A DNA stretch of 64,000 bases, from positions 64,001 to 128,000 of IMG/VR virus record IMGVR_UViG_3300017698_000036; one strand, 5' to 3'. How positions within the stretch are numbered: the stretch's first letter is position 1; each line of letters begins with the position of its first letter. The notes below the pieces were generated by a model that saw nothing but the letters and a program-made list of their open reading frames with translations, had not been told where the DNA came from and made no database searches. The DNA is from a virus. The position numbers and the translations under genes are program-made. Below are positions 19,117-61,659 of the stretch, in pieces.

Positions 19117-19701
19117 ATGCAGGTACACTCTGTTCAAAGTTCAGTTGTAGAGGACTTGGAGATCAACGTACGACTGTATATACTCTACCTGATAACTCAC
19201 TCGAATCGATTCATAATAGATCACCAGAAAGGTCATGTGGCTCCTTTTTTTAACCTTGTATATGATAATGTCAATAAGAGAAGTGTTAGAGAGAGTGTGT
19301 CAAAAAATATGATATTAAAGCTTGACGAAGCCCATGACTTTAATACTGGATATAATGATATTGTTAATGATATTATGAAAAACTATCGTGAATATGAAAA
19401 TGACTCTTATACCAGTCTTGATTATGAGTCCAAAATGGCCGGTATTTTTCATAAGTGTGGCACGTGTAAACATTGCCGACCTCATGATATCGTGCCAATG
19501 GCGGTGGAGTGTATGTTAAGACGTCAGTTTGATGGATCCATCGGCCAGCCACCACCAGATGTGTTTTTGTACGAGGCCTTTGGTGCACGGGGAACTTTAA
19601 GACCCCCCTACTGTGACTACGAGTTTTCAGACGATAGTGTTTTCAATAATATGTATAAGATGTACAATGAAGACATAAAACCCAAGTTTCAATTGTTTTA
19701 A
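19117..19701 (+). CDS. hypothetical protein ending in KFQLF
   Basis: 194 aa; CGTCKHC motif; C-terminal FQLF-stop. Confidence 0.55.
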   Translation: MQVHSVQSSVVEDLEINVRLYILYLITHSNRFIIDHQKGHVAPFFNLVYDNVNKRSVRESVSKNMILKLDEAHDFNTGYNDIVNDIMKNYREYENDSYTSLDYESKMAGIFHKCGTCKHCRPHDIVPMAVECMLRRQFDGSIGQPPPDVFLYEAFGARGTLRPPYCDYEFSDDSVFNNMYKMYNEDIKPKFQLF

Positions 19702-19715
19702 GGATGAGGTGTGAT

Positions 19716-20588
19716 ATGAATACCGTTATTAGTGTAGGTGAGACCAAACCATTTACAGACTATCTCAATAGTAGCCACAATGGTTTGTACGATTTAATTC
19801 ATATAGGGACCGAGGACTGTTTGTCGTATGGTTTTATAGATGTAGGTGGTATTGAGAAAAGTCATGAACGTTATGAGTCAGATTTTTTATCTACAGCAGG
19901 TGATTATTTGGATAAACTGTCTGGAGATAAGCTCACGTGTGTTGTAACATCTGAAAAACTGGCCGGTCTAGTTATGGTACTGTTGGACACTTTGAGGTCT
20001 AAGTTCAAAAATGTAACTGTGTATTTGGTCTTAAAGGAATCTCGTACGACAGATTACGAGGAGATATTGATAGAAAGACTCAATAAGGGAGTCTTATCTA
20101 ATGTCACAAAGGGAAAAAGACAGTTGGTCGATGAGTTGATGGTTATGTCCCTTGATAGAATGATAGGTGGATCATACTCATTCAGTAAACAGATAGAACA
20201 TTGTGCCAAAGACTTTCACACTATTAATGTATTCAGTCATCATAAACCAGAATACGTTAAGTCCAATATGATGAATTTAGATATGAAGTTGATTAAAAGG
20301 GCCAATGAATTGTCTAAGGTCTCGACAATATATGAGAATTCGTGTATAGGAGAAAAAAAGTTAGAAAATGCATTTTTTTCTCTTGACATGCCAACCAAGA
20401 TTTGCTATTATAGTAGTATAGGGTGTGAATCGGAATTAATCGATGAGGTTAATGAGATTGATAAACTGATGGACACTCTAGACAGTGATACATATTATGT
20501 TTTTGAGATATATAATCTTGGAAATAATACAAATATCTCTGTTATTTCTACTGATCAAGTTCTAGGAGATGATCCTAAGAAAGGTTAA
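19716..20588 (+). CDS. degenerate tubulin/FtsZ (PhuZ)-like protein
   Basis: Rossmann-like order (TVISVG..., CVVTSEKLAG...LL..L, VTVYLV..., FHTINVF, FFSLD..KICYY) and position between PolA-like and SSB genes. The GGGTG(S/T)G signature is absent. Start set by SD GAGGTG. Confidence 0.35.
   Translation: MNTVISVGETKPFTDYLNSSHNGLYDLIHIGTEDCLSYGFIDVGGIEKSHERYESDFLSTAGDYLDKLSGDKLTCVVTSEKLAGLVMVLLDTLRSKFKNVTVYLVLKESRTTDYEEILIERLNKGVLSNVTKGKRQLVDELMVMSLDRMIGGSYSFSKQIEHCAKDFHTINVFSHHKPEYVKSNMMNLDMKLIKRANELSKVSTIYENSCIGEKKLENAFFSLDMPTKICYYSSIGCESELIDEVNEIDKLMDTLDSDTYYVFEIYNLGNNTNISVISTDQVLGDDPKKG
20383..20411 (+). promoter_or_regulatory. sigma70-type promoter (intragenic) upstream of 20594 and LRR copy 1
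   Basis: TTGACA-N17-TATTAT. Confidence 0.45.
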
Positions 20589-20593
20589 CTACA

Positions 20594-20833
20594 ATGTCTA
20601 AATTCAATCATAAATCCGTAACCGATAGAGACTTCGAACCCAGAAAAGGTGAAGAGTTTGACCCTATGAATGCGATCGATCTTGCGATGGAATCTTATGA
20701 CGACCAGAGAGAGAGTGAAAACGCCTGTAGTGCCAAGAATCTCAACAGACATGCGAAAAAACTTCGTAACGTATTCACTGATGAGTATGGTATGATTTGT
20801 GATCCAACAGACGGAAAGTGGGTAGAATGTTAG
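20594..20833 (+). CDS. hypothetical protein
   Basis: 79-aa ORF with SD-like AAGG; its end overlaps the LRR copy 1 start. Confidence 0.5.
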   Translation: MSKFNHKSVTDRDFEPRKGEEFDPMNAIDLAMESYDDQRESENACSAKNLNRHAKKLRNVFTDEYGMICDPTDGKWVEC

Positions 20834-21240
20834 TAACAGCCAAACATATATTCGATGAACCCAAGATCTATCCATGGGATGTATTGGATTGGGCCGAGGA
20901 AGGACAGGTCGAATATGAAGTTGACTTGTATCTCAGAAATACCGATATAACCCACCTACCTGATAACATGACGGTCAATGGTTATTTAAATCTCTACAGT
21001 ACCAATATAACTCAACTACCTAAAGATCTACATGTTGGTGGCAACTTGTATCTCAATGATACCAACATAACTCAACTACCTAAAGATCTACATGTTGGAT
21101 ATCATTTAGTTCTCTACGGTACCAATATGGCTCAATTACCTGAAGGTCTGTATGTTGGTGGTAATTTACATCTTGGGCACGATGACAATATTAAGATTCC
21201 TGATTCTGTGGTCATAAAAGGTACAATTTGGCGTACTTGA
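20827..21240 (+). CDS. 20-aa LRR family protein, copy 1 (HIFDE/YPWD N-terminus)
   Basis: MLVTAKHIFDEPKIYPWDVLDW..EGQ, then repeats of L..TNITxLPxxLxVGGxLx. Confidence 0.8.
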   Translation: MLVTAKHIFDEPKIYPWDVLDWAEEGQVEYEVDLYLRNTDITHLPDNMTVNGYLNLYSTNITQLPKDLHVGGNLYLNDTNITQLPKDLHVGYHLVLYGTNMAQLPEGLYVGGNLHLGHDDNIKIPDSVVIKGTIWRT

Positions 21241-21262
21241 AAAAATTAATTTAAAATAATCC

Positions 21263-21291
21263 TTGACAATAAGAAAAATATATGGTATAAC
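21263..21291 (+). promoter_or_regulatory. sigma70-type promoter upstream of SSB
   Basis: TTGACA-N17-TATAAC with an AT-rich UP element. Confidence 0.75.
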
Positions 21292-21351
21292 TATAATAGA
21301 GGTAAAAACAGATTGTCTAACAATAAAGATAAAAAGGGAGAGCAAGAGGGG

Positions 21352-21483
21352 TTGAGTAATGTAAAATTCATTATTATAACGATTGTTTTCGTTATATTAG
21401 TGTTTTTATTGAATTATATTAATAAATTTAGTAACGAGGAATATGTGGTTAAACATGTTATTCCAGAAAGTGTAGGTAGATAA
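21352..21483 (+). CDS. small membrane protein (43 aa, absent from ORF track)
   Basis: TTG after GAGGGG; translates MSNVKFIIITIVFVILVFLLNYINKFSNEEYVVKHVIPESVGR. Confidence 0.45.
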   Translation: MSNVKFIIITIVFVILVFLLNYINKFSNEEYVVKHVIPESVGR

Positions 21484-21502
21484 ACACATAAGGAGAAAAA
21501 AT

Positions 21503-24533: not shown

Positions 24534-24758
24534 ATGGAGTCTAGATGTCCCTACTGTAGAGAGATATATTGGAAGATATTTGTACAACGACCCTTTAAGG
24601 TTATTATAGATGGAGTACTTGAGACTGTGAATTTTGACAATGTACCTTATTGTCGATTTTGTAAGAGAGATGTACTGGAGATTAAACATATCATAATGGT
24701 AGAGAACTATCTGGATAAGAAATATAACGGTAAGGCTATATGGAGGAGAGATGAGTAA
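24534..24758 (+). CDS. small zinc-ribbon protein
   Basis: CPYC...CRFC, 74 aa. Confidence 0.55.
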   Translation: MESRCPYCREIYWKIFVQRPFKVIIDGVLETVNFDNVPYCRFCKRDVLEIKHIIMVENYLDKKYNGKAIWRRDE

Positions 24759-26592
24759 CGCAAACGGTGGTATGGTAAACTTTGCCAATTTCGGTACTAA
24801 GTTTCAAAGAAAATTAGGACAGGTTATGTTTGAGGAACATCTCTTCGCAGATCAGATGTTTGAGGTACTGGAGAATGAGTTCTTTACCGTTGGTTACGTT
24901 AGAGAGTTTATTAGATCCATAAAGGACTACAAGGAGAAATATGGAGTATTTCCCTCGTATGATATAATGGATACCGTTATAACAACTCAGATGGATGATA
25001 TGTCTGACATTGTTAAAAAACAGGTAATGGAATATTTCACCGATATGAAGAGTTCTGTTGTACAGGATAAGGAGTTCATAAAGGGAAATAGTTTAGACTT
25101 CTGTAAAAGACAAGCCTTAAAAAGGGCCCTCCTAGAGGTGGTGGGTTCGGTTGAGTCTGGTTCGTATGAAGATGCAGCCCGTACAATTGAATCCGCCCTG
25201 GCCTTGGGATCGAACAGAGATATGGGTCATACCATTATTGATGACTTCGAGGCCAGATATATGTTACAGCCAAGAGTACCAATACCCACAGGACAGAAGG
25301 CCTTGGATGATCTTATCGGTGGTGGATTGGCTAAGAAGGAGTTCGGTATTTTCGTTGGTGGAACAGGATGCCACGCTAGGGGGGCGGAGATCATGTTGTA
25401 TAGTGGTGATACACTATTGGTGGAGGATGTTAGGGTCGGTGAACTCCTCATGGGCCCTGATGGAAGAAGTAGGGTGGTTACGAGATTGTATAGAGGTACC
25501 TCTGACATGTATAGAATTACACCTGATGTAGGTAAATCTTTTGTGGTCAACGGAGAACATATACTGTCCTTAAAACACTATAAGACTGGTAAGGTGGTGA
25601 ATTTAAGTGTCAATGCTTACCGTGATAGGAACGATGAGTTTAAGTCTATTTATAAATTGTACAAGGTTATAATTGATAGGGATTTGGGAGACGAATTTAT
25701 TGATCGTCAACCAAGTAAGGATTCTCTATTATCAGATTTCAGACTAAGCTCAGAGGGGAGGGATGACTTTTTTGGGTTTAATCTTTCTGGTGATCATCTA
25801 TATTTGATGTCTGATTTCACAGTCACACACAACTCAGGCAAGAGTATTCAAATGGTTAATTTCGCTACTGATGCTATTTTGAACGGATATAATGTAATTT
25901 ATTATACCTTAGAACTTCAAGACAGTGTGGTGGGTAAAAGGTTTGATAGTTGTATAACTGGATTCCCTATGAGTGAGTTAGACAGCAACAAGGAGTTTGT
26001 ATATCAGGGTTTATCGGACAAGGTAACCGGTAAATTGATAATCAAAGAGTATCCGCCTGGTTACTGTACTGTGGCTATGATGAAGAATCATATTGAGAAA
26101 ACGTCTAGAACCCTGTTCAAGCCGGATTTAATCATTGTGGATTATGCTGATATTATGAAGGTGGTGGTCAGTAAGGGAGATTCGCGATATGATGCATTGG
26201 GATCCCTATATACTGAATTGAGGGGAATCGCCTCTCATTACAATGTGGCTTTATGGACAGTATCTCAGGTTAACAGAACCGGGTACTCTTCTGAGTTAGT
26301 ATCGGTTGATAATTTAAGCGACGCGTTCAATAAGGCCTTCATTGCCGATTTAATTGTGACTCTACAGAGAAGCCCTGCACAAAAACAAAAGAATGAGGCG
26401 ACATTCTTCTTGGCTAAAAATCGTAATGGTCCTGACGGTATAATACTTAAGGGACGGGTTAATCCTGGATGTATGCAGGTTAATATTGATGGTGAGAAGT
26501 CGTTTGAGGAACATAGTACTGACCAGAAGGACCTACAGAAGGACCTTAAGGATAGGATATTCAATAAATTCTCCAATCTCAAGAATTCTTAA
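24751..26592 (+). CDS. dnaB: DnaB-like replicative helicase (gp41-like) containing an intein
   Basis: IPTG...LD..IGGG, split Walker A GGTG/SGKS, YYTLEL, IIVDYADI, WTVSQVNR, KNRNGPDG. Confidence 0.93.
   Translation: MSNANGGMVNFANFGTKFQRKLGQVMFEEHLFADQMFEVLENEFFTVGYVREFIRSIKDYKEKYGVFPSYDIMDTVITTQMDDMSDIVKKQVMEYFTDMKSSVVQDKEFIKGNSLDFCKRQALKRALLEVVGSVESGSYEDAARTIESALALGSNRDMGHTIIDDFEARYMLQPRVPIPTGQKALDDLIGGGLAKKEFGIFVGGTGCHARGAEIMLYSGDTLLVEDVRVGELLMGPDGRSRVVTRLYRGTSDMYRITPDVGKSFVVNGEHILSLKHYKTGKVVNLSVNAYRDRNDEFKSIYKLYKVIIDRDLGDEFIDRQPSKDSLLSDFRLSSEGRDDFFGFNLSGDHLYLMSDFTVTHNSGKSIQMVNFATDAILNGYNVIYYTLELQDSVVGKRFDSCITGFPMSELDSNKEFVYQGLSDKVTGKLIIKEYPPGYCTVAMMKNHIEKTSRTLFKPDLIIVDYADIMKVVVSKGDSRYDALGSLYTELRGIASHYNVALWTVSQVNRTGYSSELVSVDNLSDAFNKAFIADLIVTLQRSPAQKQKNEATFFLAKNRNGPDGIILKGRVNPGCMQVNIDGEKSFEEHSTDQKDLQKDLKDRIFNKFSNLKNS
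25369..25833 (+). mobile_element. mini-intein (155 aa) in the DnaB P-loop
   Basis: Starts CHARG, has block B VNGEHIL and ends VTHN followed by Ser+1. Removal restores GGTGSGKS. No LAGLIDADG domain. Confidence 0.92.
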
Positions 26593-29373: not shown

Positions 29374-29961
29374 ATGACATGTATTATTGGTTTAGTAGAT
29401 AAAGACGGAAAGACTTACTTGGCTGGTGACAGTATGGGATATGCCAATGTTTCATGGGGAACCCCGGTATCCAATCCCAAGGTTTTCAAGGTAAAAGATA
29501 AACCCATTGTGTTGGGATACACTACAAGTTTTAGGATGGGCCAATTGTTGGAATTTCATCCTGAGATATTTCCAGATCTACATAGAGACAAAACTGAATA
29601 CACACGTGAATATATTATCAGGGAGGTAATTCCTAGATTACAGGGACTCTATAGAGAGTCTGGATGGGGTAAGAAAGATGGTGATGGGGCCGCAGATGGA
29701 GGAACTTTCCTAATTGGTGTCCCCGGAGCCGTTTATACCGTACAGGACAATTTTGCAGTACTGGAACATATCCATGGTTATGAGGCCTGTGGGTGTGGTT
29801 GTTACGCCGCCTGTGCCTCGGTAGCTACATCTTGTAAAAATGGTGTAGAGGATCCAAAAACGATCCTCAAGGCCGCCATGGAAGTTACCGTACAGTACTC
29901 TCCTGGGGTTCAACCTCCATTTCACTATGTAACAACAGATGGTGAGGCTGGAGAGTTGTAA
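29374..29961 (+). CDS. HslV/proteasome-beta-like Ntn peptidase
   Basis: MTCIIGL (Thr1 nucleophile after Met removal), AGDS, KVF, GGTFLIG. Confidence 0.7.
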   Translation: MTCIIGLVDKDGKTYLAGDSMGYANVSWGTPVSNPKVFKVKDKPIVLGYTTSFRMGQLLEFHPEIFPDLHRDKTEYTREYIIREVIPRLQGLYRESGWGKKDGDGAADGGTFLIGVPGAVYTVQDNFAVLEHIHGYEACGCGCYAACASVATSCKNGVEDPKTILKAAMEVTVQYSPGVQPPFHYVTTDGEAGEL

Positions 29962-30149
29962 TGGGGTTTATCAAATATTTACTAAAATCCATTTGGCGAT
30001 GGTTTAAGCAGTTGGGTTTCATTATTATAATATTTCCGTTCTTTCCAATATTGTGGGTTTATCTAATGCTGGCCGACAAGAAGGAGGAGTATGACAACCA
30101 TATTGCAAACGAGAAATTACACAAAAAAGATAAGTCTGGAGATTTGTGA
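29961..30149 (+). CDS. small membrane protein
   Basis: Hydrophobic LGFIIIIFPFFPILWVYLML; TAATG overlap with the previous gene. Confidence 0.5.
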   Translation: MGFIKYLLKSIWRWFKQLGFIIIIFPFFPILWVYLMLADKKEEYDNHIANEKLHKKDKSGDL

Positions 30150-30505
30150 TGATTATCAGGTTGCGTGAGTATGACAAGAAGGGCTTTAGAATGTTTACCA
30201 TTTTTGATACGGAGGGTATGGACTTGTATGTCTTCTTGGTTCAATTAAAGGCTCACTTAACGTCCAATTTGGTTACTTGGAGCGATTCAGAAGATAAGTG
30301 TCGTGTGTCAAAGATAGATTTTGATTATTTTGATCAAATAGCCGAAGAGTATGGTATGCGTGTTGATGAGCTAATTTGTGAGATAGAGGATATGGACTTT
30401 TGTGTATCTATCGACAACGTCGCACAGTTTGTTGTGATAGGTTGTTCAAGACCAACGTACAATGATGGTAAGCGCTCGCTATTTTCAGAGGTGTATCATG
30501 AATAG
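30146..30505 (+). CDS. hypothetical protein with NDGKRSLFS tail
   Basis: ATGA overlap with the previous gene; C-terminal motif. Confidence 0.6.
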   Translation: MMIIRLREYDKKGFRMFTIFDTEGMDLYVFLVQLKAHLTSNLVTWSDSEDKCRVSKIDFDYFDQIAEEYGMRVDELICEIEDMDFCVSIDNVAQFVVIGCSRPTYNDGKRSLFSEVYHE

Positions 30506-30845
30506 TTGGAGAGATAGATGTTTTATGTTGTATTACGAAGAAGAGCTCGGCCGAATGAACGCAGTAGTAAACATGACCAATTACAATGACTGGCCATTAA
30601 CTGAGGATAAGTTAATTAGGGATTGTCGATGGGCTTGGGATATGTTACAGTATTATAACGGGCCCGGTGTAAGATACCGTTCAGAGGCTCTAGATTATTT
30701 TAATTTAGAATTCAACTTCAACCTTTCAATTGAAGACCTGTTGGGTGATTCGTATTTTATAAAAGAACAAGATTCAGAGTTTTTGATTTATAAGATTGAA
30801 CCCAGTAATGACGGTAAACACTCACTATTTTCAGAGGTGTATTGA
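30498..30845 (+). CDS. hypothetical protein with NDGKHSLFS tail
   Basis: ATG 30498 after GAGGTG; C-terminal motif. Confidence 0.6.
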   Translation: MNSWRDRCFMLYYEEELGRMNAVVNMTNYNDWPLTEDKLIRDCRWAWDMLQYYNGPGVRYRSEALDYFNLEFNFNLSIEDLLGDSYFIKEQDSEFLIYKIEPSNDGKHSLFSEVY

Positions 30846-30846
30846 G

Positions 30847-31218
30847 ATGAACTTAGATAGGTATGGTATAGTGTTTAAAAGATACCAAGAGGAAACGCTC
30901 GAATGGACCTACTTCATATGTTCTAAGAGGGGTAGAGGTAGACGAAGATACTCTAAGCAAGGAGAGTGTTTGTGTGTTCTGAGAGAGATGATAAGAAATA
31001 TTTGTAAACGAAATGTATTGGAGGAGTTATACATTCCCTTTGACTGTTTTGATGCAATATGGGAAGAGTTTAATGAATATGAATTAAACGTTTCTGAGTT
31101 AATATGTGATGATATAGACATCAAACGTGACTGTTATGACGGTACTGGAATAACGTTTACGTATGGTGGATTCTTTATCCCCGATGATGGTAAACATTCA
31201 CTATTCTCTAAGTTTTAA
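30847..31218 (+). CDS. hypothetical protein with DDGKHSLFS tail
   Basis: ATG 30847 after GAGGTG; C-terminal motif. Confidence 0.6.
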   Translation: MNLDRYGIVFKRYQEETLEWTYFICSKRGRGRRRYSKQGECLCVLREMIRNICKRNVLEELYIPFDCFDAIWEEFNEYELNVSELICDDIDIKRDCYDGTGITFTYGGFFIPDDGKHSLFSKF

Positions 31219-32249: not shown

Positions 32250-32317
32250 TTAAATTAATCCTTGACAACTGAATAAAAATGGGGTATAACTAAGTAAGGA
32301 AGGATAGATTTATCATG
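32250..32317 (+). promoter_or_regulatory. promoter+RBS module repeated at 62449-62516
   Basis: TTGACA (32262) N17 TATAAC. 49 bp are identical to 62449-62497, with only 3 mismatches over the 68 bp through the ATG. Confidence 0.9.
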
Positions 32318-32671
32318 ATTGTAACAACCGAACATATATTCGATGAAGTTAAGATTTACCCGTGGGATATATTGGATTGGGTTGAGGAGGGTCAAACTGA
32401 GTACGGTAATGATTTAAATCTCAGATATACCGATATAACACACTTACCCGACAATATGAAAGTTGATGGTTATTTAGATCTCAGAGGTACCAACATAGCT
32501 CAATTACCCGACAATCTGCGAGTCGAGTATGGATTAAACCTTGGAGATACAAATATAACTGACTTACCCGATGACCTGTATGTTGGTGGTAGTTTAACTC
32601 TCAGTAATACCAATATGGCTGACTTACCGGTACAGGATAGTGTGTTTGTTGGAATGGAGATATTCAGATGA
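32315..32671 (+). CDS. 20-aa LRR family protein, copy 2
   Basis: MIVTTEHIFDEVKIYPWD; ends VGMEIFR with an ATGA overlap. Confidence 0.8.
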   Translation: MIVTTEHIFDEVKIYPWDILDWVEEGQTEYGNDLNLRYTDITHLPDNMKVDGYLDLRGTNIAQLPDNLRVEYGLNLGDTNITDLPDDLYVGGSLTLSNTNMADLPVQDSVFVGMEIFR

Positions 32672-33033
32672 TTGTAACAACCGAACATATATTTGACGAG
32701 TGTGTACCTAGAGTTTACCCGTGGGATGTATTTGAAAACATTTATGAAGGTCAGACTAGGTATTGTAACGATATAGATTTTTATGATACCGGTATAACCC
32801 ATTTACCAGATAATATGATCTATGAGGGTCATTTAGATTTAGAAGATAATACTGACATAATTGAACTGCCTGATAACATGACGGTCGATGGCTATTTGGA
32901 CATTAGAAGAACCAAAATATCTAAACTGCCTAATCACTTAAAGGTTCGTTGTTGGTTAAATACTGAAGATACCGGTATATGTAGTATTCCGGATACTGTA
33001 GAGGTGGGAGGGGTGACATATCTTGATAATTAA
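32668..33033 (+). CDS. 20-aa LRR family protein, copy 3
   Basis: MIVTTEHIFDECVPRVYPWD; first 26 nt identical to copy 2. Confidence 0.8.
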   Translation: MIVTTEHIFDECVPRVYPWDVFENIYEGQTRYCNDIDFYDTGITHLPDNMIYEGHLDLEDNTDIIELPDNMTVDGYLDIRRTKISKLPNHLKVRCWLNTEDTGICSIPDTVEVGGVTYLDN

Positions 33034-33342: not shown

Positions 33343-33717
33343 ATGGGTCGTAAGAGAAAAAACTTTAAATACAAACTCCTATTAACTCACGATATAGAGT
33401 CGGAGTGTTCGTACATAAAGACAGTTACGTCTAAATATTTTACTAAGTATGAAGTGGGCGGAGTTGAGTATCTTGTCAGTAAGAGATTTTATGGTTTAAA
33501 GGGGGAATATGACGACGAGAAGACCGTCGGATATAGTACTCTGACTGGAGACTCCGTTTATGTGTTTGTCGATGAATGGTACATGTACCTGGAGACCTAT
33601 AACGACGATATGCATAAGATACTATCTGGACCTTGCAAAACATTCAACGATAAGGTAAAGAGGTTTATTCCGGTGGCCTTAAATAGAGCTGCGTTACTAA
33701 GGAAGTTTATAAAATGA
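33343..33717 (+). CDS. hypothetical protein
   Basis: SD AGGAG; 124 aa. Confidence 0.55.
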   Translation: MGRKRKNFKYKLLLTHDIESECSYIKTVTSKYFTKYEVGGVEYLVSKRFYGLKGEYDDEKTVGYSTLTGDSVYVFVDEWYMYLETYNDDMHKILSGPCKTFNDKVKRFIPVALNRAALLRKFIK

Positions 33718-34100
33718 AAACTGAAGCTCGTAAAACTACGGCCAATTACCTGGGTAAGTACGACATTAGAATATCCGGATATGCGATGGATATGTTTGAT
33801 ATACCTTATTCAGATTCGTCCAATTTTTACAAACTAAACCCATCAGATAGATTAGAGGTACTGTGTAAGGCGATCACCTATATATTGAGAGCCGGTAGCG
33901 AATATCGAGGTACACCAAGTTACTTAAAGGTAACATACTACGATTGTTATGACTGGCTTAATATGACTATAGCCAAGGTGTTAGCCAATATAGGTCCTAG
34001 TACTGATCTGTTGTGTGAGGACAATTACAATTTGGGTTATTTAAGATTCAGGCTTAAACCCGCAGATGATGGAAGGTTTTCTTTATTTTCTAAAAACTGA
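33714..34100 (+). CDS. hypothetical protein with DDGRFSLFS tail
   Basis: C-terminal motif; start overlaps the previous gene. Confidence 0.55.
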   Translation: MKTEARKTTANYLGKYDIRISGYAMDMFDIPYSDSSNFYKLNPSDRLEVLCKAITYILRAGSEYRGTPSYLKVTYYDCYDWLNMTIAKVLANIGPSTDLLCEDNYNLGYLRFRLKPADDGRFSLFSKN

Positions 34101-34117: not shown

Positions 34118-34591
34118 TTGAGATTTATAAATTATGTTAAAAATAATAGTAAGTTGGAGTGGTTGGTCGATGACGTAGACAATCCAACTAGGATCATGTT
34201 TTGTTATCTAGGATCATATTCTAATCGATCCGGTACAGAAAAATGTCAGAAGTTCGTGGATAAGTATGGAGATAATAGGATCAAAAAGAAATTTCCCGTG
34301 TTTGAGGTAGATTTCGTATTTGATCACACTTGGTTATGGGAGTCATCTGCAGGTTGGGTATGTAAGGATGTTGACACCGATGAAGAGTTTAGGGTGTCTA
34401 TTGTAGACCAGGACGGTTTAATGGATAGGGTAGAACTCGTAAGAACAATAGAGGGAAACGGTGATGTCGACGACAAGAAAGTGTATCGTATGAAGGGTTT
34501 TTATCGTAAGAAGTCAAGTTATGTATACTTTATTCCGTTCGTTGGAAGTATAAATGAAGTATACAAACCAAAGGCACATCAATTATTTTAA
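34118..34591 (+). CDS. hypothetical protein ending in AHQLF
   Basis: TTG after GAGGAGG; 157 aa. Confidence 0.55.
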   Translation: MRFINYVKNNSKLEWLVDDVDNPTRIMFCYLGSYSNRSGTEKCQKFVDKYGDNRIKKKFPVFEVDFVFDHTWLWESSAGWVCKDVDTDEEFRVSIVDQDGLMDRVELVRTIEGNGDVDDKKVYRMKGFYRKKSSYVYFIPFVGSINEVYKPKAHQLF

Positions 34592-34609: not shown

Positions 34610-35314
34610 ATGGCATTTGATATTAGAGAACATTTTAAGAAAGAAGAGGTGTTGGACAAAGGGTATATTGAATTAACCGACGGCATGGTGAGTGATCCAT
34701 TGTTGAAGATAGTAAACTCCGCCAGGGTATCCTTTCAGAAGGAATCAACTGTATTAACTAAAAAGGATAAACAGTTGATTAACTATTTGTATGAACATAA
34801 ACACTTCAGCACATTCAGACATAGCTATTTTACGTTTAGAGTTGGTGCACCCCTGTTTTGTTTTAAGCAGTGGTGGAAGCATCAAATTGGAAGTGACTTT
34901 CTAGAACGCGATATCGGAGAAGTTCAAATGCCAGAGACGAACTGGAATGAGGTTAGTGGTAGATACGTGGAGTGGAAACCTGAATTCTATATACCTGCCG
35001 TGTGGAGAGGACAGAGTGATGATAACAAGCAGGGATCCTCTGATGTGGTAATTCATGTTGATGACTTTGAGGATAAGTGTAATCGTGACTATGATTACTA
35101 TAAAAGTCTATTGGATCGAGGGGTGGCTAAAGAGATGGCCCGTATGGTTCTCCCTCCCAATCTATACTCCGAGTGTATTTGGACTGTGTCGTTACAGGGA
35201 CTGCTATATTGGTTAGATCTAAGAAGCGACAGTCATGCTCAGTGGGAAATACGCCAATACGCCAATGCCATTGTCAGTCTCATGAGTGGAATGTTGGGGG
35301 ACATGGTGGAGTAA
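34610..35314 (+). CDS. thyX: flavin-dependent thymidylate synthase
   Basis: IVNSARVSF, LINYL..HKH.S.F.H, QWWKH, WNEVSGRY, GVAKEMARMVLP, HAQWEIRQYA. Confidence 0.93.
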   Translation: MAFDIREHFKKEEVLDKGYIELTDGMVSDPLLKIVNSARVSFQKESTVLTKKDKQLINYLYEHKHFSTFRHSYFTFRVGAPLFCFKQWWKHQIGSDFLERDIGEVQMPETNWNEVSGRYVEWKPEFYIPAVWRGQSDDNKQGSSDVVIHVDDFEDKCNRDYDYYKSLLDRGVAKEMARMVLPPNLYSECIWTVSLQGLLYWLDLRSDSHAQWEIRQYANAIVSLMSGMLGDMVE

Positions 35315-35721
35315 TGTCCAAAGATGATAATGAATTTGAGATCTATGCGGAGGGTCGTTACGGGGCCGTTCATTTCAATCTACAGGTTAATCTAAGGTGT
35401 GGGTTGGGAATGTATCACGGCCTCATGGAAACATTAACAAGATACGATGAGTATATACATTATCTTATCTGGAGTCGTAAGTTACAACGAGAAGAGTGGG
35501 ATACCATTAAGGATATGTATAACCTGAATGGTATGGACGTCGATAGAGTCCTAGAGTCTCAGGATGTATGTGGAGATAAGTTAGATATGGTAGCCCTTTT
35601 GGTTGGAGAAGATCATTTCGAGGTTGAGTTTGTGGTAGATAATATAGCCAAGTCATATAAATACTATACACCAAAGGATGATGGTCGACATTCTTTATTT
35701 TCGGTTACATACGATGCATAG
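35314..35721 (+). CDS. hypothetical protein with DDGRHSLFS tail
   Basis: TAATG overlap with thyX; C-terminal motif. Confidence 0.55.
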   Translation: MSKDDNEFEIYAEGRYGAVHFNLQVNLRCGLGMYHGLMETLTRYDEYIHYLIWSRKLQREEWDTIKDMYNLNGMDVDRVLESQDVCGDKLDMVALLVGEDHFEVEFVVDNIAKSYKYYTPKDDGRHSLFSVTYDA

Positions 35722-37982: not shown

Positions 37983-38078
37983 ATGTCGTATCGATGTTGT
38001 AGTGAGTTTACAGATTGTGAGCTCAAAGTACATAATAAGTTAAAATTAGTTCCATTTCAAAGATTTCAACTATTTTAA
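37983..38078 (+). CDS. 31-aa peptide ending in RFQLF (absent from ORF track)
   Basis: MSYRCCSEFTDCELKVHNKLKLVPFQRFQLF; SD-like AGGAAG. Confidence 0.5.
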   Translation: MSYRCCSEFTDCELKVHNKLKLVPFQRFQLF

Positions 38079-38086: not shown

Positions 38087-38115
38087 TTGACAAGTCAATA
38101 AAAATCTGGTACAAT
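38087..38115 (+). promoter_or_regulatory. sigma70-type promoter
   Basis: TTGACA-N17-TACAAT. Confidence 0.7.
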
Positions 38116-38161
38116 TATATAAGAAGGTAAGTTTTGTTCGTTATCTAAGAAAGGAGACAGC

Positions 38162-38662
38162 ATGTTGGGATTTTTAGGTGGTGTATTTGGTTACTTAATA
38201 TTACTGTATATTGTGATCCATATAAGAGTAGCATATACGTCAGAAGTGGATGAGATAAATGAGCTTTTTAATCAAAGACGTGAAATTATTGAATATGCAT
38301 ATTTACTCAATCAAGAACCCGTTGTCGAAATGAAAGATCATGAAAGATTTCGTAAGTTTAGATTTCATAAAAATATAGACCTTCAATCTAGAGACAAAAG
38401 GTTTAAATTGGATATTGTCCATGAGGCCACAATGTTGAGTGGTAAATATCGTGACTATAAGAGTGAACGAATTCGTGAAACCACAAAGGCCTTATTTAAA
38501 CTGTATACAACCGCATATTTTAATCATAGAGAGGTTGTGAAAATATATGATGAGTTTTTAAAACAAAGAGTCAATAATGGTCATCAAACGCTAAAAGACT
38601 ATATGGTATTCCACAATTCAGATTATCCAGTTAGGGATTTCGATAAATTTCAACTGTTTTAA
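38162..38662 (+). CDS. N-terminally membrane-anchored protein ending in KFQLF
   Basis: TM MLGFLGGVFGYLILLYIVIHI; SD AAGGAG. Confidence 0.6.
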   Translation: MLGFLGGVFGYLILLYIVIHIRVAYTSEVDEINELFNQRREIIEYAYLLNQEPVVEMKDHERFRKFRFHKNIDLQSRDKRFKLDIVHEATMLSGKYRDYKSERIRETTKALFKLYTTAYFNHREVVKIYDEFLKQRVNNGHQTLKDYMVFHNSDYPVRDFDKFQLF

Positions 38663-38672: not shown

Positions 38673-38978
38673 ATGATTGTTAAAAAGAAGACCGAGTATG
38701 TTAAATCCCAAAAGGGTAGGTATTTCGAACCACCAAAGCGCCACCGCCAAATCACGTATGATAGGTTTACGGATCTTGGTTTAAGTTGTTATGATTGTGC
38801 GTATTTTAATGGAGTAGGCGAAGAGTGCACATGTTGGATTCGTCAGTGTAAACCAGGAGGCCTCCCCCAAGGTATGATTGCATCCATATTAGCTTGTTGT
38901 AATCTACCCAAAGCACTTTGTATACAGTTTAGATTAATGGCAACTGTTAAAATATATAAAGATTTTCAACTATTTTAA
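38673..38978 (+). CDS. Cys-rich hypothetical protein ending in DFQLF
   Basis: CYDCAYF...C.C pattern; C-terminal motif. Confidence 0.55.
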   Translation: MIVKKKTEYVKSQKGRYFEPPKRHRQITYDRFTDLGLSCYDCAYFNGVGEECTCWIRQCKPGGLPQGMIASILACCNLPKALCIQFRLMATVKIYKDFQLF

Positions 38979-46554: not shown

Positions 46555-47346
46555 GTGGAGAAATTTATGTTCAAATCTATGTTCAAAGACTATATCAGAA
46601 AAACCATTATCGAATTCTTAAACGGTGGCCCCCTAGAAGAAGAGCAAACGATGACCAAGGAGGAACTGGTAAAACACATTCAGGAGCAGGTAGAGGGAAA
46701 GGAGGAAGAGGAAGGAGAGTCTAAAAGTTTAATCAGTCAACTACAGATCGAAGAGGCTTTGAAGATTTTAGAACTTCAAGTACCTATTTATATTAACAGA
46801 GTGATCGATGAAAAGCTTTTCGACTCAGTTATTACAAGACTTCATGATATTCTATTTTTACGTAAACGTATTAAAGAGTTAAAGGAGAAGTATCCAGACG
46901 AAAAGATGCTCTCCCACGTTGATTTAAATGCACCAGTAAAGATTGTCATTGCGACTCCAGGTGGTAATGTACGTGAAGGAATGGCCATCTATGACGCTAT
47001 GCAACTTCTCAAGAAGGATGGTTGTATTGTTGAGACGATAGGATCAGGACAGGTATTTTCTATGGGAACTCTTCTGTTGGCGGGAGGTTCTAAAGGTCAT
47101 CGTTATATGACCAAAAACTCAATGTTAATGATACACAATATTAGTGGAGGTACCATTGGAACTCTACCAGATATGGAAACCAGACTGAAAGAGATGAAAC
47201 GTCTTAAGGAACAGTTTTTCAGTGTATTCAAGACGGATACAGATTTTTCAGAGGACCATCTTAGGGATTTGTTAAATGAGAAGACGGATCAGTATTTGAC
47301 CCCTTCTGAGTGTCTTAGATACGGCGTTGTTGACAAGGTTATCTAA
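46555..47346 (+). CDS. clpP: ClpP-family serine protease with N-terminal extension
   Basis: IATPGGNV..GMAIYDAMQ, GQVFSMG.LLLAGG.KG.R...NS.LMIH, D.YLT..E...YG.VD.VI. GTG start as called by the ORF track. Confidence 0.88.
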   Translation: MEKFMFKSMFKDYIRKTIIEFLNGGPLEEEQTMTKEELVKHIQEQVEGKEEEEGESKSLISQLQIEEALKILELQVPIYINRVIDEKLFDSVITRLHDILFLRKRIKELKEKYPDEKMLSHVDLNAPVKIVIATPGGNVREGMAIYDAMQLLKKDGCIVETIGSGQVFSMGTLLLAGGSKGHRYMTKNSMLMIHNISGGTIGTLPDMETRLKEMKRLKEQFFSVFKTDTDFSEDHLRDLLNEKTDQYLTPSECLRYGVVDKVI

Positions 47347-54262: not shown

Positions 54263-54290
54263 TTGACATATCGATATGATGGGGTATAAT
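54263..54290 (+). promoter_or_regulatory. sigma70-type promoter upstream of LRR copies 4-5
   Basis: TTGACA-N16-TATAAT, GGGG before -10. Confidence 0.75.
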
Positions 54291-54339: not shown

Positions 54340-54879
54340 ATGAAGATGAACAAGCTTGACGGTTTAAGGGTATCACTCATGGATGTATGTGAAAATCTTT
54401 ATGGTACCATGGTTTTTGATCACGGCATTATTATATACGAAGGTTCCCTGTCCTTACGCAATTCCGACATAACACATCTTCCAGACAACTTTTATGTAAA
54501 CGGAGGCCTGAACATAGGTGGGTCTAAGATGACACAGTTACCAGGAAATTTAACTGTCCACGATCATTTCAATTTGTCCCACACCAATATTACAGAACTC
54601 CCAGATGATTTAAAGGTTGGTAAGTGGTTGAATGTTCGTGGTTCTAAGGTGACTAAAATTCCGGACAATATGACTGTAAATGGTACCTTTATTGCGGCCG
54701 CCACACCGTTAGAGCTCTTACCAGGTGGTCTACATGTACGTGAGGGTTTGGATTTGTCAAACACCAATATTACAAAATTACCCGATGATCTAATTGTGGA
54801 TGGTTGGTTAGATATTAGAAACACCAATATAACCAACATTCCTGAAACCGTGAAGATTGGTGGAGAGATATTTAGATGA
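54340..54879 (+). CDS. 20-aa LRR family protein, copy 4 (different N-terminus, about 7 repeats)
   Basis: ITHLPDNFYVNGGLN repeats; ends IGGEIFR with an ATGA overlap. Confidence 0.8.
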   Translation: MKMNKLDGLRVSLMDVCENLYGTMVFDHGIIIYEGSLSLRNSDITHLPDNFYVNGGLNIGGSKMTQLPGNLTVHDHFNLSHTNITELPDDLKVGKWLNVRGSKVTKIPDNMTVNGTFIAAATPLELLPGGLHVREGLDLSNTNITKLPDDLIVDGWLDIRNTNITNIPETVKIGGEIFR

Positions 54880-55286
54880 TCACAACAACCAGGCATATAT
54901 TCGACGAACCCAAAGTCTATCCGTGGGACATACTTGAATGGGTTAAGGAGGGACAGAGATGCTATGATGGACCAGTTGATCTGTCTCTTGAACATGTAAC
55001 CCACCTTCCGTATGGTATGGAGGTAAATGGTGCGTTGGATTTAGAGAACTCACATTTAACCGTTCTCCCTAGCGGTTTACGTGTTGAAGATTGGTTAGAT
55101 CTCAGTGGTACCAACATAACTCATTTACCTGATGATCTATATGTTGGTGGTAGTTTGTATCTCGGTGGTACAAATATAACTCATTTACCCGACAATCTAG
55201 AGGTTGGAGGTAGTTTAGATATAAGAAACACCAACATTGTTGACATTCCAGATACTGTAAAGGTGCTCAGGAGGATAATAAGATGA
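54876..55286 (+). CDS. 20-aa LRR family protein, copy 5
   Basis: MITTTRHIFDEPKVYPWD; ends RRIIR followed by ATGA. Confidence 0.8.
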   Translation: MITTTRHIFDEPKVYPWDILEWVKEGQRCYDGPVDLSLEHVTHLPYGMEVNGALDLENSHLTVLPSGLRVEDWLDLSGTNITHLPDDLYVGGSLYLGGTNITHLPDNLEVGGSLDIRNTNIVDIPDTVKVLRRIIR

Positions 55287-55931: not shown

Positions 55932-55960
55932 TTGACAAACGGGTCAATATCGGGTATAAT
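55932..55960 (+). promoter_or_regulatory. sigma70-type promoter upstream of LRR copies 6-7
   Basis: TTGACA-N17-TATAAT. Confidence 0.75.
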
Positions 55961-55982
55961 TTTAATAGAGAGGATTTATATT

Positions 55983-56339
55983 ATGTTAGTAACAACCGAA
56001 CATATATTTGACGAGTGTATACCTAGAATTTATCCATGGGATGTATTGGATTGGGTCGAGGAGCGCCAAACTAGGTACCATCGTAGTTTATTTCTCAGAG
56101 ATACTAACATAACTCATTTACCTGACAATATGACAGTTAATGGTTGTTTAAATCTCAGAGATACTAACATAACTCATTTACCTAATAATCTAAAAGTTAT
56201 TGGTGATTTATATCTAGACAGAACCAACATAACTAAATTACCCAACGATCTATATGTTGGTGGTAATTTAGATTTATATGGTATCAATATAACCAACATG
56301 CCTGAGAGTGTACGTGTTGGTGGAGAGATAATAAGATGA
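55983..56339 (+). CDS. 20-aa LRR family protein, copy 6
   Basis: ATG 55983 after GAGAGG; MLVTTEHIFDECIPRIYPWD; 31-nt direct repeat with 60-nt period (56093/56153); ends VGGEIIR with ATGA. Confidence 0.8.
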   Translation: MLVTTEHIFDECIPRIYPWDVLDWVEERQTRYHRSLFLRDTNITHLPDNMTVNGCLNLRDTNITHLPNNLKVIGDLYLDRTNITKLPNDLYVGGNLDLYGINITNMPESVRVGGEIIR

Positions 56340-58664: not shown

Positions 58665-58669
58665 AGCGA

Positions 58670-58690
58670 ATGGGGGGTTTGTCCCCCCAT
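58670..58690 (+). terminator. hairpin after paralog pair
   Basis: ATGGGGGG-tttgt-CCCCCCAT; weak U tract. Confidence 0.5.
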
Positions 58691-58713
58691 AATTCTATCA
58701 AAGGAGTGATGTT

Positions 58714-58902
58714 ATGATTATATTTATAACATTGTTGGTTTTGTCTTTAGTGGCGATTGGTATGCAGTATCTTAAACGATATATAAATAATGTAAGATAC
58801 TATATGATTGCCGATTTGGTTGACGATGTAGTGTCCTGTTATATCGTAATCATCGTCTTCTTCTCTCTGTATGAACTAGTCCCACTATTCATTTTAAATT
58901 AA
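58714..58902 (+). CDS. small two-TM membrane protein
   Basis: Two hydrophobic helices; SD AAGGAG. Confidence 0.55.
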   Translation: MIIFITLLVLSLVAIGMQYLKRYINNVRYYMIADLVDDVVSCYIVIIVFFSLYELVPLFILN

Positions 58903-58904
58903 AC

Positions 58905-59321: not shown

Positions 59322-59322
59322 T

Positions 59323-59748
59323 ATGGATATAAAGAGTAGAAAATTAAATAACAAAAATAGGAATTATTTTAAGGTATATTTCATAGTAAATAAAAGATAC
59401 AACCTGGTATGGCATGTTCGTCATGTAGAACGTTATGTGTCTGGATTTCGCAAGGGTCAAATTAAACTGAGAAAAGACATGATAAGTCTCACTAGAAACC
59501 AAGCTCAGGGGAAATTAAACCGTCTCTATTGGCGTAGTGATGATGAGCAGACATATGAAGTAGGAATCAATCAAAAAGAGTTAGAGACTTACTACGGAGG
59601 TAAAACAGATTGTGATATAAAACTCAACCCTGATTCAATAAACAGTTACAAGGTCACAGTATACCTTTCAGATTTAGAGATAGTAGAGCACTCTGTCGAC
59701 GTTACACAGTTGATTGAAAAAGATTCTGAAATGTTTTCCTTATTTTAA
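59323..59748 (+). CDS. hypothetical protein ending in MFSLF
   Basis: 141 aa; C-terminal motif; a promoter follows the stop immediately. Confidence 0.55.
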   Translation: MDIKSRKLNNKNRNYFKVYFIVNKRYNLVWHVRHVERYVSGFRKGQIKLRKDMISLTRNQAQGKLNRLYWRSDDEQTYEVGINQKELETYYGGKTDCDIKLNPDSINSYKVTVYLSDLEIVEHSVDVTQLIEKDSEMFSLF

Positions 59749-59753
59749 AACTC

Positions 59754-59782
59754 TTGACAAGAGATTCAGTTTGAGGTATAAC
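59754..59782 (+). promoter_or_regulatory. sigma70-type promoter upstream of LRR copy 8
   Basis: TTGACA-N17-TATAAC, then TAAATAAGAAAGGA. Confidence 0.8.
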
Positions 59783-59806
59783 TAAATAAGAAAGGATAAT
59801 TTCATT

Positions 59807-60097
59807 ATGTTAGTACCAACCAAGCATATATTCGATGAGTGTAGAGTTTATCCATGGGATGTATTGGAATGGATTGAAGAAGGTCAAACTGACTATATCG
59901 GTAGTTTAACTCTCAGAAATACCAATATAACCCATTTACCCAATAACATGACGGTCGATGGTTGGTTAGATCTCAGGGGTACCAACATGGTTCAACTGCC
60001 CGATTATCTATATGTTGGTGGCGGTTTGTTTCTCGGTGGTACAAATATAATTAACATACCAGAAAGTGTATTTGTTGGTGGAGAGATATTCAGATGA
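59807..60097 (+). CDS. 20-aa LRR family protein, copy 8
   Basis: MLVPTKHIFDECRVYPWD; ends VGGEIFR with ATGA. Confidence 0.8.
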   Translation: MLVPTKHIFDECRVYPWDVLEWIEEGQTDYIGSLTLRNTNITHLPNNMTVDGWLDLRGTNMVQLPDYLYVGGGLFLGGTNIINIPESVFVGGEIFR

Positions 60098-60363
60098 CTT
60101 ATAGCAGGGTAAAAACCTACATACTCATACTATTCGGTAAACCTACATTTGAAAATCCGGATGAAGAAGGTGTAGAGTGTTACGAGTATATAATAGATAG
60201 ACATATTAGGTTGTTCTTCTTCTTCGATCCAGATGACGTTAAATATTTATTACTTTCATCTTCTAGTGGATTCACGGAAGGTGTTGTGCGTGGTGAAGAG
60301 GACGTTAGGAGGGTGTTTGAATTACTCAAGGAGACACGTAAGGAGTATGAGACGTATGAGTAG
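60094..60363 (+). CDS. hypothetical protein
   Basis: ATGA-coupled to LRR copy 8; 89 aa. Confidence 0.5.
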   Translation: MTYSRVKTYILILFGKPTFENPDEEGVECYEYIIDRHIRLFFFFDPDDVKYLLLSSSSGFTEGVVRGEEDVRRVFELLKETRKEYETYE

Positions 60364-60652
60364 ACTGTTGGTTGTGTTATTAATTGTTTTTATGGGATGT
60401 GACGACGGTAGTGTGAATGATGGTAAACAGACCAACAACACTACGATGGAGTCCGTCTGTGGAAATGGTATATTCGAGGGTCGTGAGGGTTATGAGATGG
60501 ACGATGATGGTAACATAATATCGTACTATGGTAGTCCTGTAACCTGTGAAGATTTTGCATTTGATGGTGGGACATTAATATTGAGTGATGACTGTAGGGT
60601 TGACTTTACGGATTGTATATGTTTACCCGACAATCCTTACTGTAATGAATAA
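60356..60652 (+). CDS. lipoprotein with cysteine-rich CGNG repeat
   Basis: MSRLLVVLLIVFMG-C lipobox; VCGNGIFEG.E...TCEDFAFDGGTL...DC..DFTDC. Confidence 0.7.
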   Translation: MSRLLVVLLIVFMGCDDGSVNDGKQTNNTTMESVCGNGIFEGREGYEMDDDGNIISYYGSPVTCEDFAFDGGTLILSDDCRVDFTDCICLPDNPYCNE

Positions 60653-60669
60653 CGAAGGGAGATGGATAT

Positions 60670-60909
60670 ATGGTTGTAACTAAAGTACTTAAGGGCTCTA
60701 CGGTGGAACTCCTCGAAACGGCCCTCAATGATTGGTTATTAAAGTATGAAGGTATATATCACGATAATAATGTAGAGATAGTTATTACGGGTGATAGTGA
60801 CACTAATGGTTGGACTGCACTGATCAAACTACAAAAGATAGACAAAACGGTAGTGGTGAAGAATGCATACGATGCAGGTACCAGGACCGACGGATTCAGG
60901 TTCAGTTAG
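60670..60909 (+). CDS. hypothetical protein
   Basis: SD AAGGGAG; 79 aa. Confidence 0.5.
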   Translation: MVVTKVLKGSTVELLETALNDWLLKYEGIYHDNNVEIVITGDSDTNGWTALIKLQKIDKTVVVKNAYDAGTRTDGFRFS

Positions 60910-60918
60910 GAGTTTATT

Positions 60919-61119
60919 ATGGAAGGAACATATGATGGAAAAGTAACCTATCGTGACAAGGATGATATTTCTCTCTTTCTTCGGCATTGGGAGGGAGTTG
61001 ATACGGTAAGTTGGACGGCCGACGGCAAGGTTAGAATTGTGGTAGATTCATCAATGACTTCTACCGATAAGGCCCTGTGGCAAAAACGTCAATATTTTGC
61101 AAATAATCAGTTGTTTTAG
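60919..61119 (+). CDS. hypothetical protein ending in NNQLF
   Basis: SD AGGAG; C-terminal motif. Confidence 0.55.
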   Translation: MEGTYDGKVTYRDKDDISLFLRHWEGVDTVSWTADGKVRIVVDSSMTSTDKALWQKRQYFANNQLF

Positions 61120-61149
61120 TTGTGATTAAATAAAAAGATAAAAAAACAC

Positions 61150-61178
61150 TTGACTGATGTAAAGTTTATCACTATATT
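61150..61178 (+). promoter_or_regulatory. sigma70-type promoter
   Basis: TTGACT-N17-TATATT. Confidence 0.6.
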
Positions 61179-61228
61179 AAAGGTATGGGAATAAACCCAT
61201 ACTAACTTAGAATGGAAAGAGAGTTAAA

Positions 61229-61390
61229 ATGTCCAAGACTTACAGAAAACAAATTGGTAACAAGAAAATCAAAAGACAAGATAATAAAAAAGGTAGAAGA
61301 CATAATGTGAAACAGAAACTTCACGATCTTGTCAACAGTGGAGAATGTACCAACTGTGATTTTGAAATTCCAGAAACTTGGGAAGGGTAA
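61229..61390 (+). CDS. small basic protein (53 aa, absent from ORF track)
   Basis: MSKTYRKQIGNKKIKRQDNKKGRRHNVKQKLHDLVNSGECTNCDFEIPETWEG. Confidence 0.5.
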   Translation: MSKTYRKQIGNKKIKRQDNKKGRRHNVKQKLHDLVNSGECTNCDFEIPETWEG

Positions 61391-61395
61391 CTAAA

Positions 61396-61659
61396 ATGAC
61401 CAAAGTTAAAACAGGACCTAATATTTTCTCTCAAATGGAATATGGTTTGGACTCTCCATCTGCTTTAAAAAGAAAGATTGACACATTGGCAGGTACCTTG
61501 GTCGAGAAAATGAACGAGGAGTTGGATACTGATAAGTTCAAAGATATGAACTCCGACATGTTGCGACTTGTTAAAGAGGAGTTGGAGAAGGATATCAAAA
61601 AGGCTATTGATAGTGCTTTTAGTGAGTACATGAAAACTAAAAGTCATTCATTGTTTTAA
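61396..61659 (+). CDS. hypothetical protein ending in KSHSLF
   Basis: ATG 61396; helical; C-terminal motif. Confidence 0.55.
   Translation: MTKVKTGPNIFSQMEYGLDSPSALKRKIDTLAGTLVEKMNEELDTDKFKDMNSDMLRLVKEELEKDIKKAIDSAFSEYMKTKSHSLF

Follow-up and report, generated by a model that had tools for sequence, protein, structure and literature searches.

Short terminal peptides that unrelated proteins carry as a common label are described in several systems. The beta-clamp motif QL[SD]LF is short and hydrophobic, ends in L-F and is often at the extreme C-terminus; through it many unrelated proteins dock on one hub. Phage proteins use it as well: Mor of phage Mu works with only the DLF of the clamp consensus, while MuC uses QHDLF and QPDLF (PMC12867686). 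In T4 (the gp45-docking tails of gp43, gp55 and gp33) and in T7 (the acidic, Phe-ending tails of gp2.5 and gp4), several unrelated phage proteins have a C-terminal tail in common, and one phage partner reads it. The ssrA LAA and ClpX C-motif degrons, the PTS1 signal SKL and the encapsulin cargo peptides also consist of a few terminal residues, which serve unrelated proteins as a transferable label. Finally, bacterial zincin peptidases located beside vWA-MoxR systems process variable small proteins with conserved C-terminal peptides (Kaur, Burroughs, Iyer, Aravind 2020, PMC7159879). Here we analyze a C-terminal tail, x-[QS]-L-F-stop, shared by small proteins of a virus from the IMG/VR database (record IMGVR_UViG_3300017698_000036). 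The window, i.e. the whole stretch of 64,000 nucleotides that was analyzed, corresponds to bases 64001-128000 of this viral contig, which is linear, 138,656 bp long and about 70% complete. A second sequence, L005, covers the window end and the contig sequence beyond it, position 232 of L005 being position 63232 of the window.

Twelve open reading frames (ORFs) of the contig end with this tail, eight in the window and four beyond it. Coordinates here and below are those of the window unless another sequence is indicated:

19117-19701, + strand: tagged ORF of 194 amino acids, Cys-rich C-terminal half, tail KPKFQLF-stop
34118-34591, + strand: tagged ORF of 157 amino acids, tail KPKAHQLF-stop, last small gene before thyX
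37983-38078, + strand: tagged ORF of 31 amino acids, tail QRFQLF-stop, AAGGAAG ribosome-binding site
38162-38662, + strand: tagged ORF of 166 amino acids, hydrophobic N-terminal segment, tail DFDKFQLF-stop
38673-38978, + strand: tagged ORF of 101 amino acids, Cys-rich, tail YKDFQLF-stop, directly upstream of dnaE
59323-59748, + strand: tagged ORF of 141 amino acids, tail SEMFSLF-stop, promoter-like site after it
60919-61119, + strand: tagged ORF of 66 amino acids, tail ANNQLF-stop (TAG), promoter-like site 61150-61178 after it
61378-61659, + strand: tagged ORF of 93 amino acids, tail TKSHSLF-stop
L005 7138-7896: tagged ORF beyond the window, tail DKFQLF
L005 10521-10958: tagged ORF beyond the window, tail NKQLF
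L005 10967-11299: tagged ORF beyond the window, tail DLQLF
L005 11309-11626: tagged ORF beyond the window, tail QQLF

The eight tails of the window had been listed in a first-pass annotation, and when the ORF ends were checked all of them were found where it had placed them. For the last of these ORFs the tail KSHSLF was right and only the start differs, the longest one being at 61378 instead of 61396. The four added tails all lie within the last 4.5 kb of the contig, which ends 30 bases past the last tag (L005 11309-11626); therefore the tagged array probably continues beyond the contig end. L and F are present in 12/12 tails, preceded by Q in 10/12 and by S in 2/12. Position -4 is F in six of the 12 and H in two, and position -5 reads, from the first tail to the last, K, A, R, K, D, M, N, S, K, N, D and K. 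The extended consensus is [K/R/x]-[F/H/x]-[Q/S]-L-F-COOH. The tagged genes are not in the structural half of the genome: the first 64 kb of the contig, which hold the large structural genes, contain none.

The DNA pattern encoding Q-L-F-stop occurs six times in the window versus 1.05 +/- 1.0 times in shuffled sequences (both strands, any frame), and all six matches are on the + strand, in frame and at an ORF end. Q-L-F-coding 9-mers are found 12 times on the + strand of the window in any frame; six of them are the last three codons of a gene. Over the whole contig there are 11 forward and 2 reverse matches to Q-L-F-stop, versus 2 and 1 for the reversed-pattern control. The first 64 kb give two forward matches to Q-L-F-stop and two matches to S-L-F-stop, all out of frame inside large genes. 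Q or S precedes L-F in every gene of the window that ends in L-F. From typical residue frequencies we estimate that about 0.03-0.05 [QS]LF ends would be expected among the approximately 92 ORFs, versus eight seen. These counts come from pattern searches and ORF lists. The first-pass annotation had named a frequency no higher than chance as refuting its observation; the tail is in fact far above chance. The observation is real, statistically overwhelming and situated at the peptide level.

We aligned the 12 stops with 35 bases upstream and 70 bases downstream. Conservation is confined to the last 4-5 codons and the flanks differ between copies. Within these codons Leu is encoded by TTG (four tails), TTA (three), CTA (three) or CTG (two), Phe by TTT (11) or TTC (one) and Gln by CAA (six) or CAG (four), and the stop is TAA (nine), TAG (two) or TGA (one). 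The variation of the Gln, Leu, Phe and stop codons is entirely synonymous across the 12 tails, which are always in frame, on the gene strand and at the gene end. Because of this position, of the synonymous-only variation and of the lack of conservation in the flanking DNA, the tail is a peptide signal and not a DNA site, and it is kept at the protein level. Selection on the peptide, proposed earlier from the variation of the Leu codon alone, is thus supported. The competing idea of a fixed DNA site acting regardless of frame is not borne out, nothing being conserved outside the last codons and no frame-independent copies being present at gene ends.

The proteins that bear the tail are 31 to 252 amino acids long. 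Their forced alignment gives 13-27% identity, the only invariant residues being L and F, and in BLASTP comparisons the pairs have nothing in common but the tail. One exception is the tandem pair L005 10967/11309, whose members are weakly similar (E=1e-4). With this reservation the earlier description of the bodies as unrelated holds. A PHROG search of the tagged proteins assigned no family, and Pfam gave chance-level matches only, all below the curated cut-offs. The tagged bodies are ORFans, mutually unrelated apart from the weak tandem pair. The residues before the tail are polar, often with Pro (KPK-, KPKA-, VPFQR-, YPVRDFDK-, NPKDK-, SPTLNKLNK-), and the arrangement resembles that of a linker leading to a short docking peptide. 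Structure prediction of the protein encoded by 34118-34591 (mean predicted local distance difference test score, pLDDT, of 35.8) is too poor to judge the exposure of the tail. An ESM Atlas look-up with 19117-19701 returned chance-level rows only, and the Atlas's own model is poor.

The most likely function of the tail, in our view, is that of a handle for docking or addressing, common to all carriers and read by a single partner; belief and doubt about this reading are about balanced. By recognizing the hydrophobic L-F, the common partner would handle many small effector proteins of different kinds as one group; that a single reader serves all the tails is what we infer. Compared to QL[SD]LF, the tails of the contig keep the L-F (12/12) but fail on the two other sequence features: they have no Q at position 1, and position 3, S or D in the motif, is mostly Q. 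Their carriers are also early ORFans. In T4 and T7 the tails belong to 2-4 proteins of replication or transcription whose partners are known; in our contig there are at least 12 carriers, of unknown function, the tail is not acidic and there is no gp45-like gene. The difference from the degrons, PTS1 and the encapsulin cargo peptides lies in the sequence, all the tails of the contig ending in [QS]LF, and in the matching receptor, which was not found in the contig.

The resemblance to the vWA-MoxR peptide-processing modules is that variable small tailed proteins are encoded near a zincin and a MoxR-vWA pair, with intact HExxH and DxSxS motifs here; in the phage of the contig this link is by neighbourhood only. 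By contrast, the published tails are of the FxSxx, RxD or acidic types and belong to bacterial conflict systems with other partners (PMC7159879). Pfam scans of about 45 proteins of the window and L005 revealed no radical-SAM or AP-ATPase partner, neither family having been specifically searched. Since both the tail type and the partner genes fail, the locus is not a member of these modules. The tail may work like QL[SD]LF or like the vWA-MoxR modules, and we class it under neither. No paper describing a QLF-type tail was found in the literature, and the sequence [FH][QS]LF appears to be new.

The candidate readers encoded in the contig are ClpP, an HslV-like peptidase, GroEL, a family of leucine-rich-repeat (LRR)-like proteins and a MoxR pair. 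The peptidases and the pair are located as follows:

29374-29961, + strand: HslV-family peptidase-like protein of 195 amino acids starting M-T-C-I-I-G-L-V (phrog_1040, E=6e-14), alternative candidate
46555-47346, + strand: phage ClpP with an N-terminal extension of about 117 amino acids, alternative candidate reader or protease
63232 on (L005 232-1671), + strand: gene for a zincin peptidase (DUF2201_N) and vWA (DUF2201) protein, candidate tail reader
L005 1790-2911: MoxR-type AAA+ ATPase, after the zincin-vWA gene

The best single candidate for the reader would be the MoxR AAA+ ATPase with the zincin-peptidase/vWA protein, an assignment that we nevertheless hold to be doubtful. The two proteins would bind the tail, then remodel or clip the tagged proteins. 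Their domains are assigned by Pfam (PF13203 and PF09967, PF07728), and 88 homologs all keep the HExxH...H motif (H118/E119/H122/H127) and the metal site DxSxS (D348/S350/S352). In favour of MoxR, it is also the only AAA+ ATPase of the contig matched by the Clp-type AAA+ model (PF07724). The pair lies between tagged cassettes, with a strong promoter-like site directly upstream. Its architecture, a fused zincin-vWA plus MoxR, is common to this phage and to the group 2.2 jumbo phages, and the paper on the latter mentions no tagged proteins (PMC7824862). A complex prediction combining the zincin-vWA protein, the tagged protein 38673-38978, Zn and Mg scored 0.00, which is evidence neither way, and nothing useful came from searching the PDB by sequence, either with the zincin-vWA profile or with three proteins of medium size that have no annotation. 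The best PHROG of the zincin-vWA protein is phrog_1314, labelled “HNH endonuclease”; this label looks wrong given DUF2201_N/DUF2201, the invariant HExxH and DxSxS. The HslV-like protein, which has no Pfam match, is a proteasome-like peptidase that stands alone, and the phage encodes ClpP and GroEL as well.

A homologous MoxR plus zincin-vWA pair is present at 2690-5103 of a metagenome contig, L021. Beside it, at 5143-13470, at least six dissimilar small proteins end in a different tail, [DN]L[KR]KExLKxhh (h, hydrophobic). L021 may thus be a parallel case with a different tag. In a wider reading, large phages would possess a tag-addressed protein-handling system: at least a tenth of their early accessory proteins would bear a lineage-specific tail, here [FH][QS]LF, and the phage-encoded MoxR/zincin-vWA machine would read it and activate, assemble or clip these proteins. 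This generalization seems to us rather improbable.

A second set of proteins ends with [ND]DG[KR]x-S-L-F-S followed by 2-12 residues. One member is upstream of the window (L003 5964) and seven are within it:

30146-31218, + strand: three overlapping members, with ends NDGKRSLFSEVYHE, NDGKHSLFSEVY and DDGKHSLFSKF
33714-34100, + strand: member with end DDGRFSLFSKN, directly upstream of the tagged ORF 34118
35299-35721, + strand: member with end DDGRHSLFSVTYDA; start uncertain, open frame from 35173
61875-62138, + strand: member with NDGRYSLFS and 12 more residues
62807-63148, + strand: member with end NDGRFSLFSEFY; stop of the LRR-like gene 62514-62810 and start of this member overlap (ATGA)

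The core [KR][FHY]SLF is common to the second set and to the S variants of the tail, S being present in 8/8 members of the second set. These proteins have a loosely conserved C-terminal domain of about 50 amino acids; therefore the second set looks like one paralog family and not like independent carriers. If it uses the tail reader, the latter needs no free carboxylate. The structure predicted from the alignment of the second set (pLDDT of 51, below 50 in the tail region) is too poor to judge exposure. A scan of IMG/VR for DNA encoding DGKHSLFS gave one chance match, in an unrelated phage of high GC and on the wrong strand.

Several points weigh against a common reader and against the MoxR pair in this role. 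The databases reached gave no relative that allows the tail to be compared in orthologs. The 12 proteins are very short and fast-evolving, and could descend from fewer ancestors than sequence comparison shows. Tagged genes are also found 25-45 kb from the MoxR pair. Among five other contigs with a homologous MoxR/zincin-vWA pair, four are without a clear shared tail in the approximately 10 kb of DNA available: L019, L022 and L023 show nothing clear, and L020 an ordinary paralog family. The link between the pair and a tail is thus not general in this sample. In group 2.2 jumbo phages, Iyer et al. 2021 propose that the MoxR/metallopeptidase-vWA pair acts in virion assembly (PMC7824862).

The tail could be explained otherwise than by a common reader. 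It could be a DNA- or translation-level signal, i.e. a promoter UP element, a recombination boundary or a termination/frameshift context at TTT-TAA. This would fit the sigma-70-like promoter found within 10-40 bases after the tail in 4/8 window copies and the restricted codon usage, Phe being TTT in 11/12 tails and the Leu codon always YTR. But the remaining copies directly precede the next gene, whose ribosome-binding site immediately follows the tail, the variable positions are all synonymous with no conservation outside the last codons, the pattern is never found out of frame or on the opposite strand at a gene end, and the downstream frames are unfit for a +1 fusion. An explanation at the DNA level is largely refuted, and we give it hardly any credit. 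A +1 frameshift at TTT-TAA was rejected: the downstream frames mismatch, and the requirement for Q/S-L would stay unexplained. A relic of common descent or a structural end would imply one small family, or a few, from which the carriers have diverged strongly, the tail being a conserved structural element and not exposed. The weak homology of the tandem pair L005 10967/11309 goes in this direction, as do the second set with its shared C-terminal domain and the fact that phage early regions are rich in fast-diverging paralogs, e.g. in L020. Nevertheless the lengths of the carriers range from 31 to 252 amino acids, their make-up differs (hydrophobic N-terminal segment, Cys-rich, coiled-coil-like, beta-rich) and the similarity stops at the tail, which polar or Pro linkers precede. 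Common descent is thus very unlikely to account for it.

Two further explanations, both suggested by the first-pass annotation, which also named localisation as a candidate function, give the tail a known type of partner. In the first the tail is a degron, marking early proteins for timed removal, so that host-takeover proteins vanish when middle or late functions start. Removal could be the task of the phage ClpP, assisted by an unfoldase of the host, or of the HslV-like peptidase, the zincin domain or a protease of the host. Among bacterial degrons, hydrophobic tails at the C-terminus form a known class (ssrA/ClpX C-motif 1), the carriers are early-operon proteins, and a ClpP with an N-terminal extension and an HslV-family peptidase are indeed encoded. 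This part of the proposal stands, but the tail is unlike the C-terminal motifs of ClpX (LAA-like, RRKKAI-like), and the contig contains no match to PDZ_2 or to Peptidase_S41, the family of tail-specific proteases, and no Clp/Hsp100-type unfoldase, the PF07724 search matching only the MoxR gene. Moreover ClpP is a core gene, also present in a relative without the three tagged ORFs upstream of dnaE (10-kb stretch), and the core of the second set lies 2-12 residues before the C-terminus, a position more in keeping with binding in a groove than with recognition of the end. We consider a degron unlikely. In the second explanation the tail is a degenerate QL[SD]LF tethering early proteins to a borrowed host beta sliding clamp. 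Its L-F corresponds to motif positions 4-5, [SD]LF is matched by the S variants and throughout the second set, and clamp motifs are often at the extreme C-terminus. In view of phage Mu, a degenerate motif with an L-F ending is not unreasonable (PMC12867686), and by eye the bacterial-type DnaE of the contig has EELMF at the place of the E. coli QADMF. A host clamp would also be consistent with the fact that the phage's own clamp or clamp loader was not found in the approximately 139 kb of this incomplete contig (about 70%), be it DnaN or a gp45-type clamp with its clamp loader (PF09116, PF02916 and PF13177, without match). Thus the L-F ending of the docking proposal is matched, but the Q of position 1 is absent in 12/12 tails and position 3 is S in 2/12 and Q, neither S nor D, in 10/12. 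Furthermore the carriers are ORFans in early cassettes and not DNA enzymes, while the recognizable DNA enzymes of the phage (FEN, RecA-like, helicase, SSB) are without the tail. Docking on the host clamp is quite unlikely in our view.

The handle reading concerns genes that share a particular genomic setting. Nearly all genes of the window are on the + strand according to the ORF list, and the tagged ones are in short co-directional cassettes separated by consensus-like sigma-70 promoters. Perfect or near-perfect promoters, TTGACA-16/17-TATAAT, lie between small-gene cassettes at 54263-54290, 55932-55960, 63156-63184 and 38088-38116, and the one that follows the 31-amino-acid ORF 37983-38078 reads TTGACA-17-TACAAT. 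This suggests that the sigma-70 RNA polymerase of the host drives the whole cassette region, and from these promoters we infer that the tagged genes are early genes. Cassettes with tagged genes often open with a member of the LRR-like family, which comprises about ten members. The corresponding features are:

63156-63184, + strand: sigma-70-like promoter, TTGACA-17-TATATT with TG, before the zincin-vWA/MoxR operon
20818-21240: LRR-like gene
32315-33033: LRR-like gene
54340-55286: LRR-like gene
55932-56339: LRR-like gene
59807-60097: LRR-like gene
62514-62810: LRR-like gene
L005 2935-3330: LRR-like gene

The LRR-like proteins start with a nearly invariant N-terminal module, M-[IL]-V-T-T-x-H-I-F-D-E...Y-P-W-D, continue with a variable number of 20-amino-acid repeats and end like GGEIFR. 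The TGA stop of several of their genes overlaps the ATG of the next gene. The alignment of the family found no relatives in IMG/VR, and in metagenomes three matches limited to the LRR repeats; the one that was checked (L026) has no enrichment in L-F-stop.

Three consecutive tagged ORFs immediately precede dnaE, as had been correctly noticed. In the nearest relative found, a distant one represented by a short metagenome contig (L014/L015), whose DnaE is 44% identical to that of our contig, the gene order (a 372-amino-acid gene, DnaE, dUTPase, ClpP, GroEL) is kept. In L014 the homolog of the 372-amino-acid gene overlaps the dnaE start, and the four intervening small ORFs, three of them tagged, are absent. 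Because of this absence, the tagged ORFs between the 372-amino-acid gene and dnaE are accessory genes.

Pfam scans of the contig identified replication and nucleotide genes: a gp32-like SSB, a RecA/UvsX-like protein, a 5'-3' exonuclease, a ribonucleotide reductase and ThyX. It also encodes a bacterial-type DnaE (38991-42506), a dUTPase, a GMP reductase, ClpP and GroEL. Two probable inteins were noted, one as a Hom_end-associated Hint domain within a DnaB-like helicase (24751-26592), the other, by eye from the translation, as a Hint-like insert interrupting a 548-amino-acid cytosine-methyltransferase-like ORF (L005 5399-7045). DNA of the contig is present in sequencing runs of one sand-metagenome study, with no RNA run listed. 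The nearest DnaE relatives are at most 44% identical, and those in cultured phages below 30%; the lineage is almost unsampled. In GenBank phages, megablast with the dnaE region and tblastn with two tagged proteins (34118-34591 being one) gave no match, the zincin-vWA protein none at E<=1e-10, and MoxR only matches of at most 32% identity. No relative of DnaE or of MoxR was found in IMG/VR, and the 372-amino-acid neighbour gene has a single match (41%), on a 1.3-kb contig. Another metagenome contig, L017, whose DnaE is 42% identical to that of this phage, has Cas7 and faint Cas5d Pfam matches at 9228-12224, a few genes downstream of dnaE/dUTPase and in a phage-like context.

If one reader does serve all the tails, the five-residue handle would be a cheap hook, and a tagged reporter could fish out the reader; the tag would also define a set of probable host-takeover effectors, all of them ORFans. 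If the reader is the host sliding clamp or a protease, a known docking or degron logic would be extended to an unusually large set of clients. If it is MoxR/zincin-vWA, the widespread and unexplained MoxR-vWA pair of phages would gain both a function and a client list. Finally, if the principle is common, phage cell biology would have a general feature that has not been described so far, namely early proteins bearing address tags specific to their lineage.

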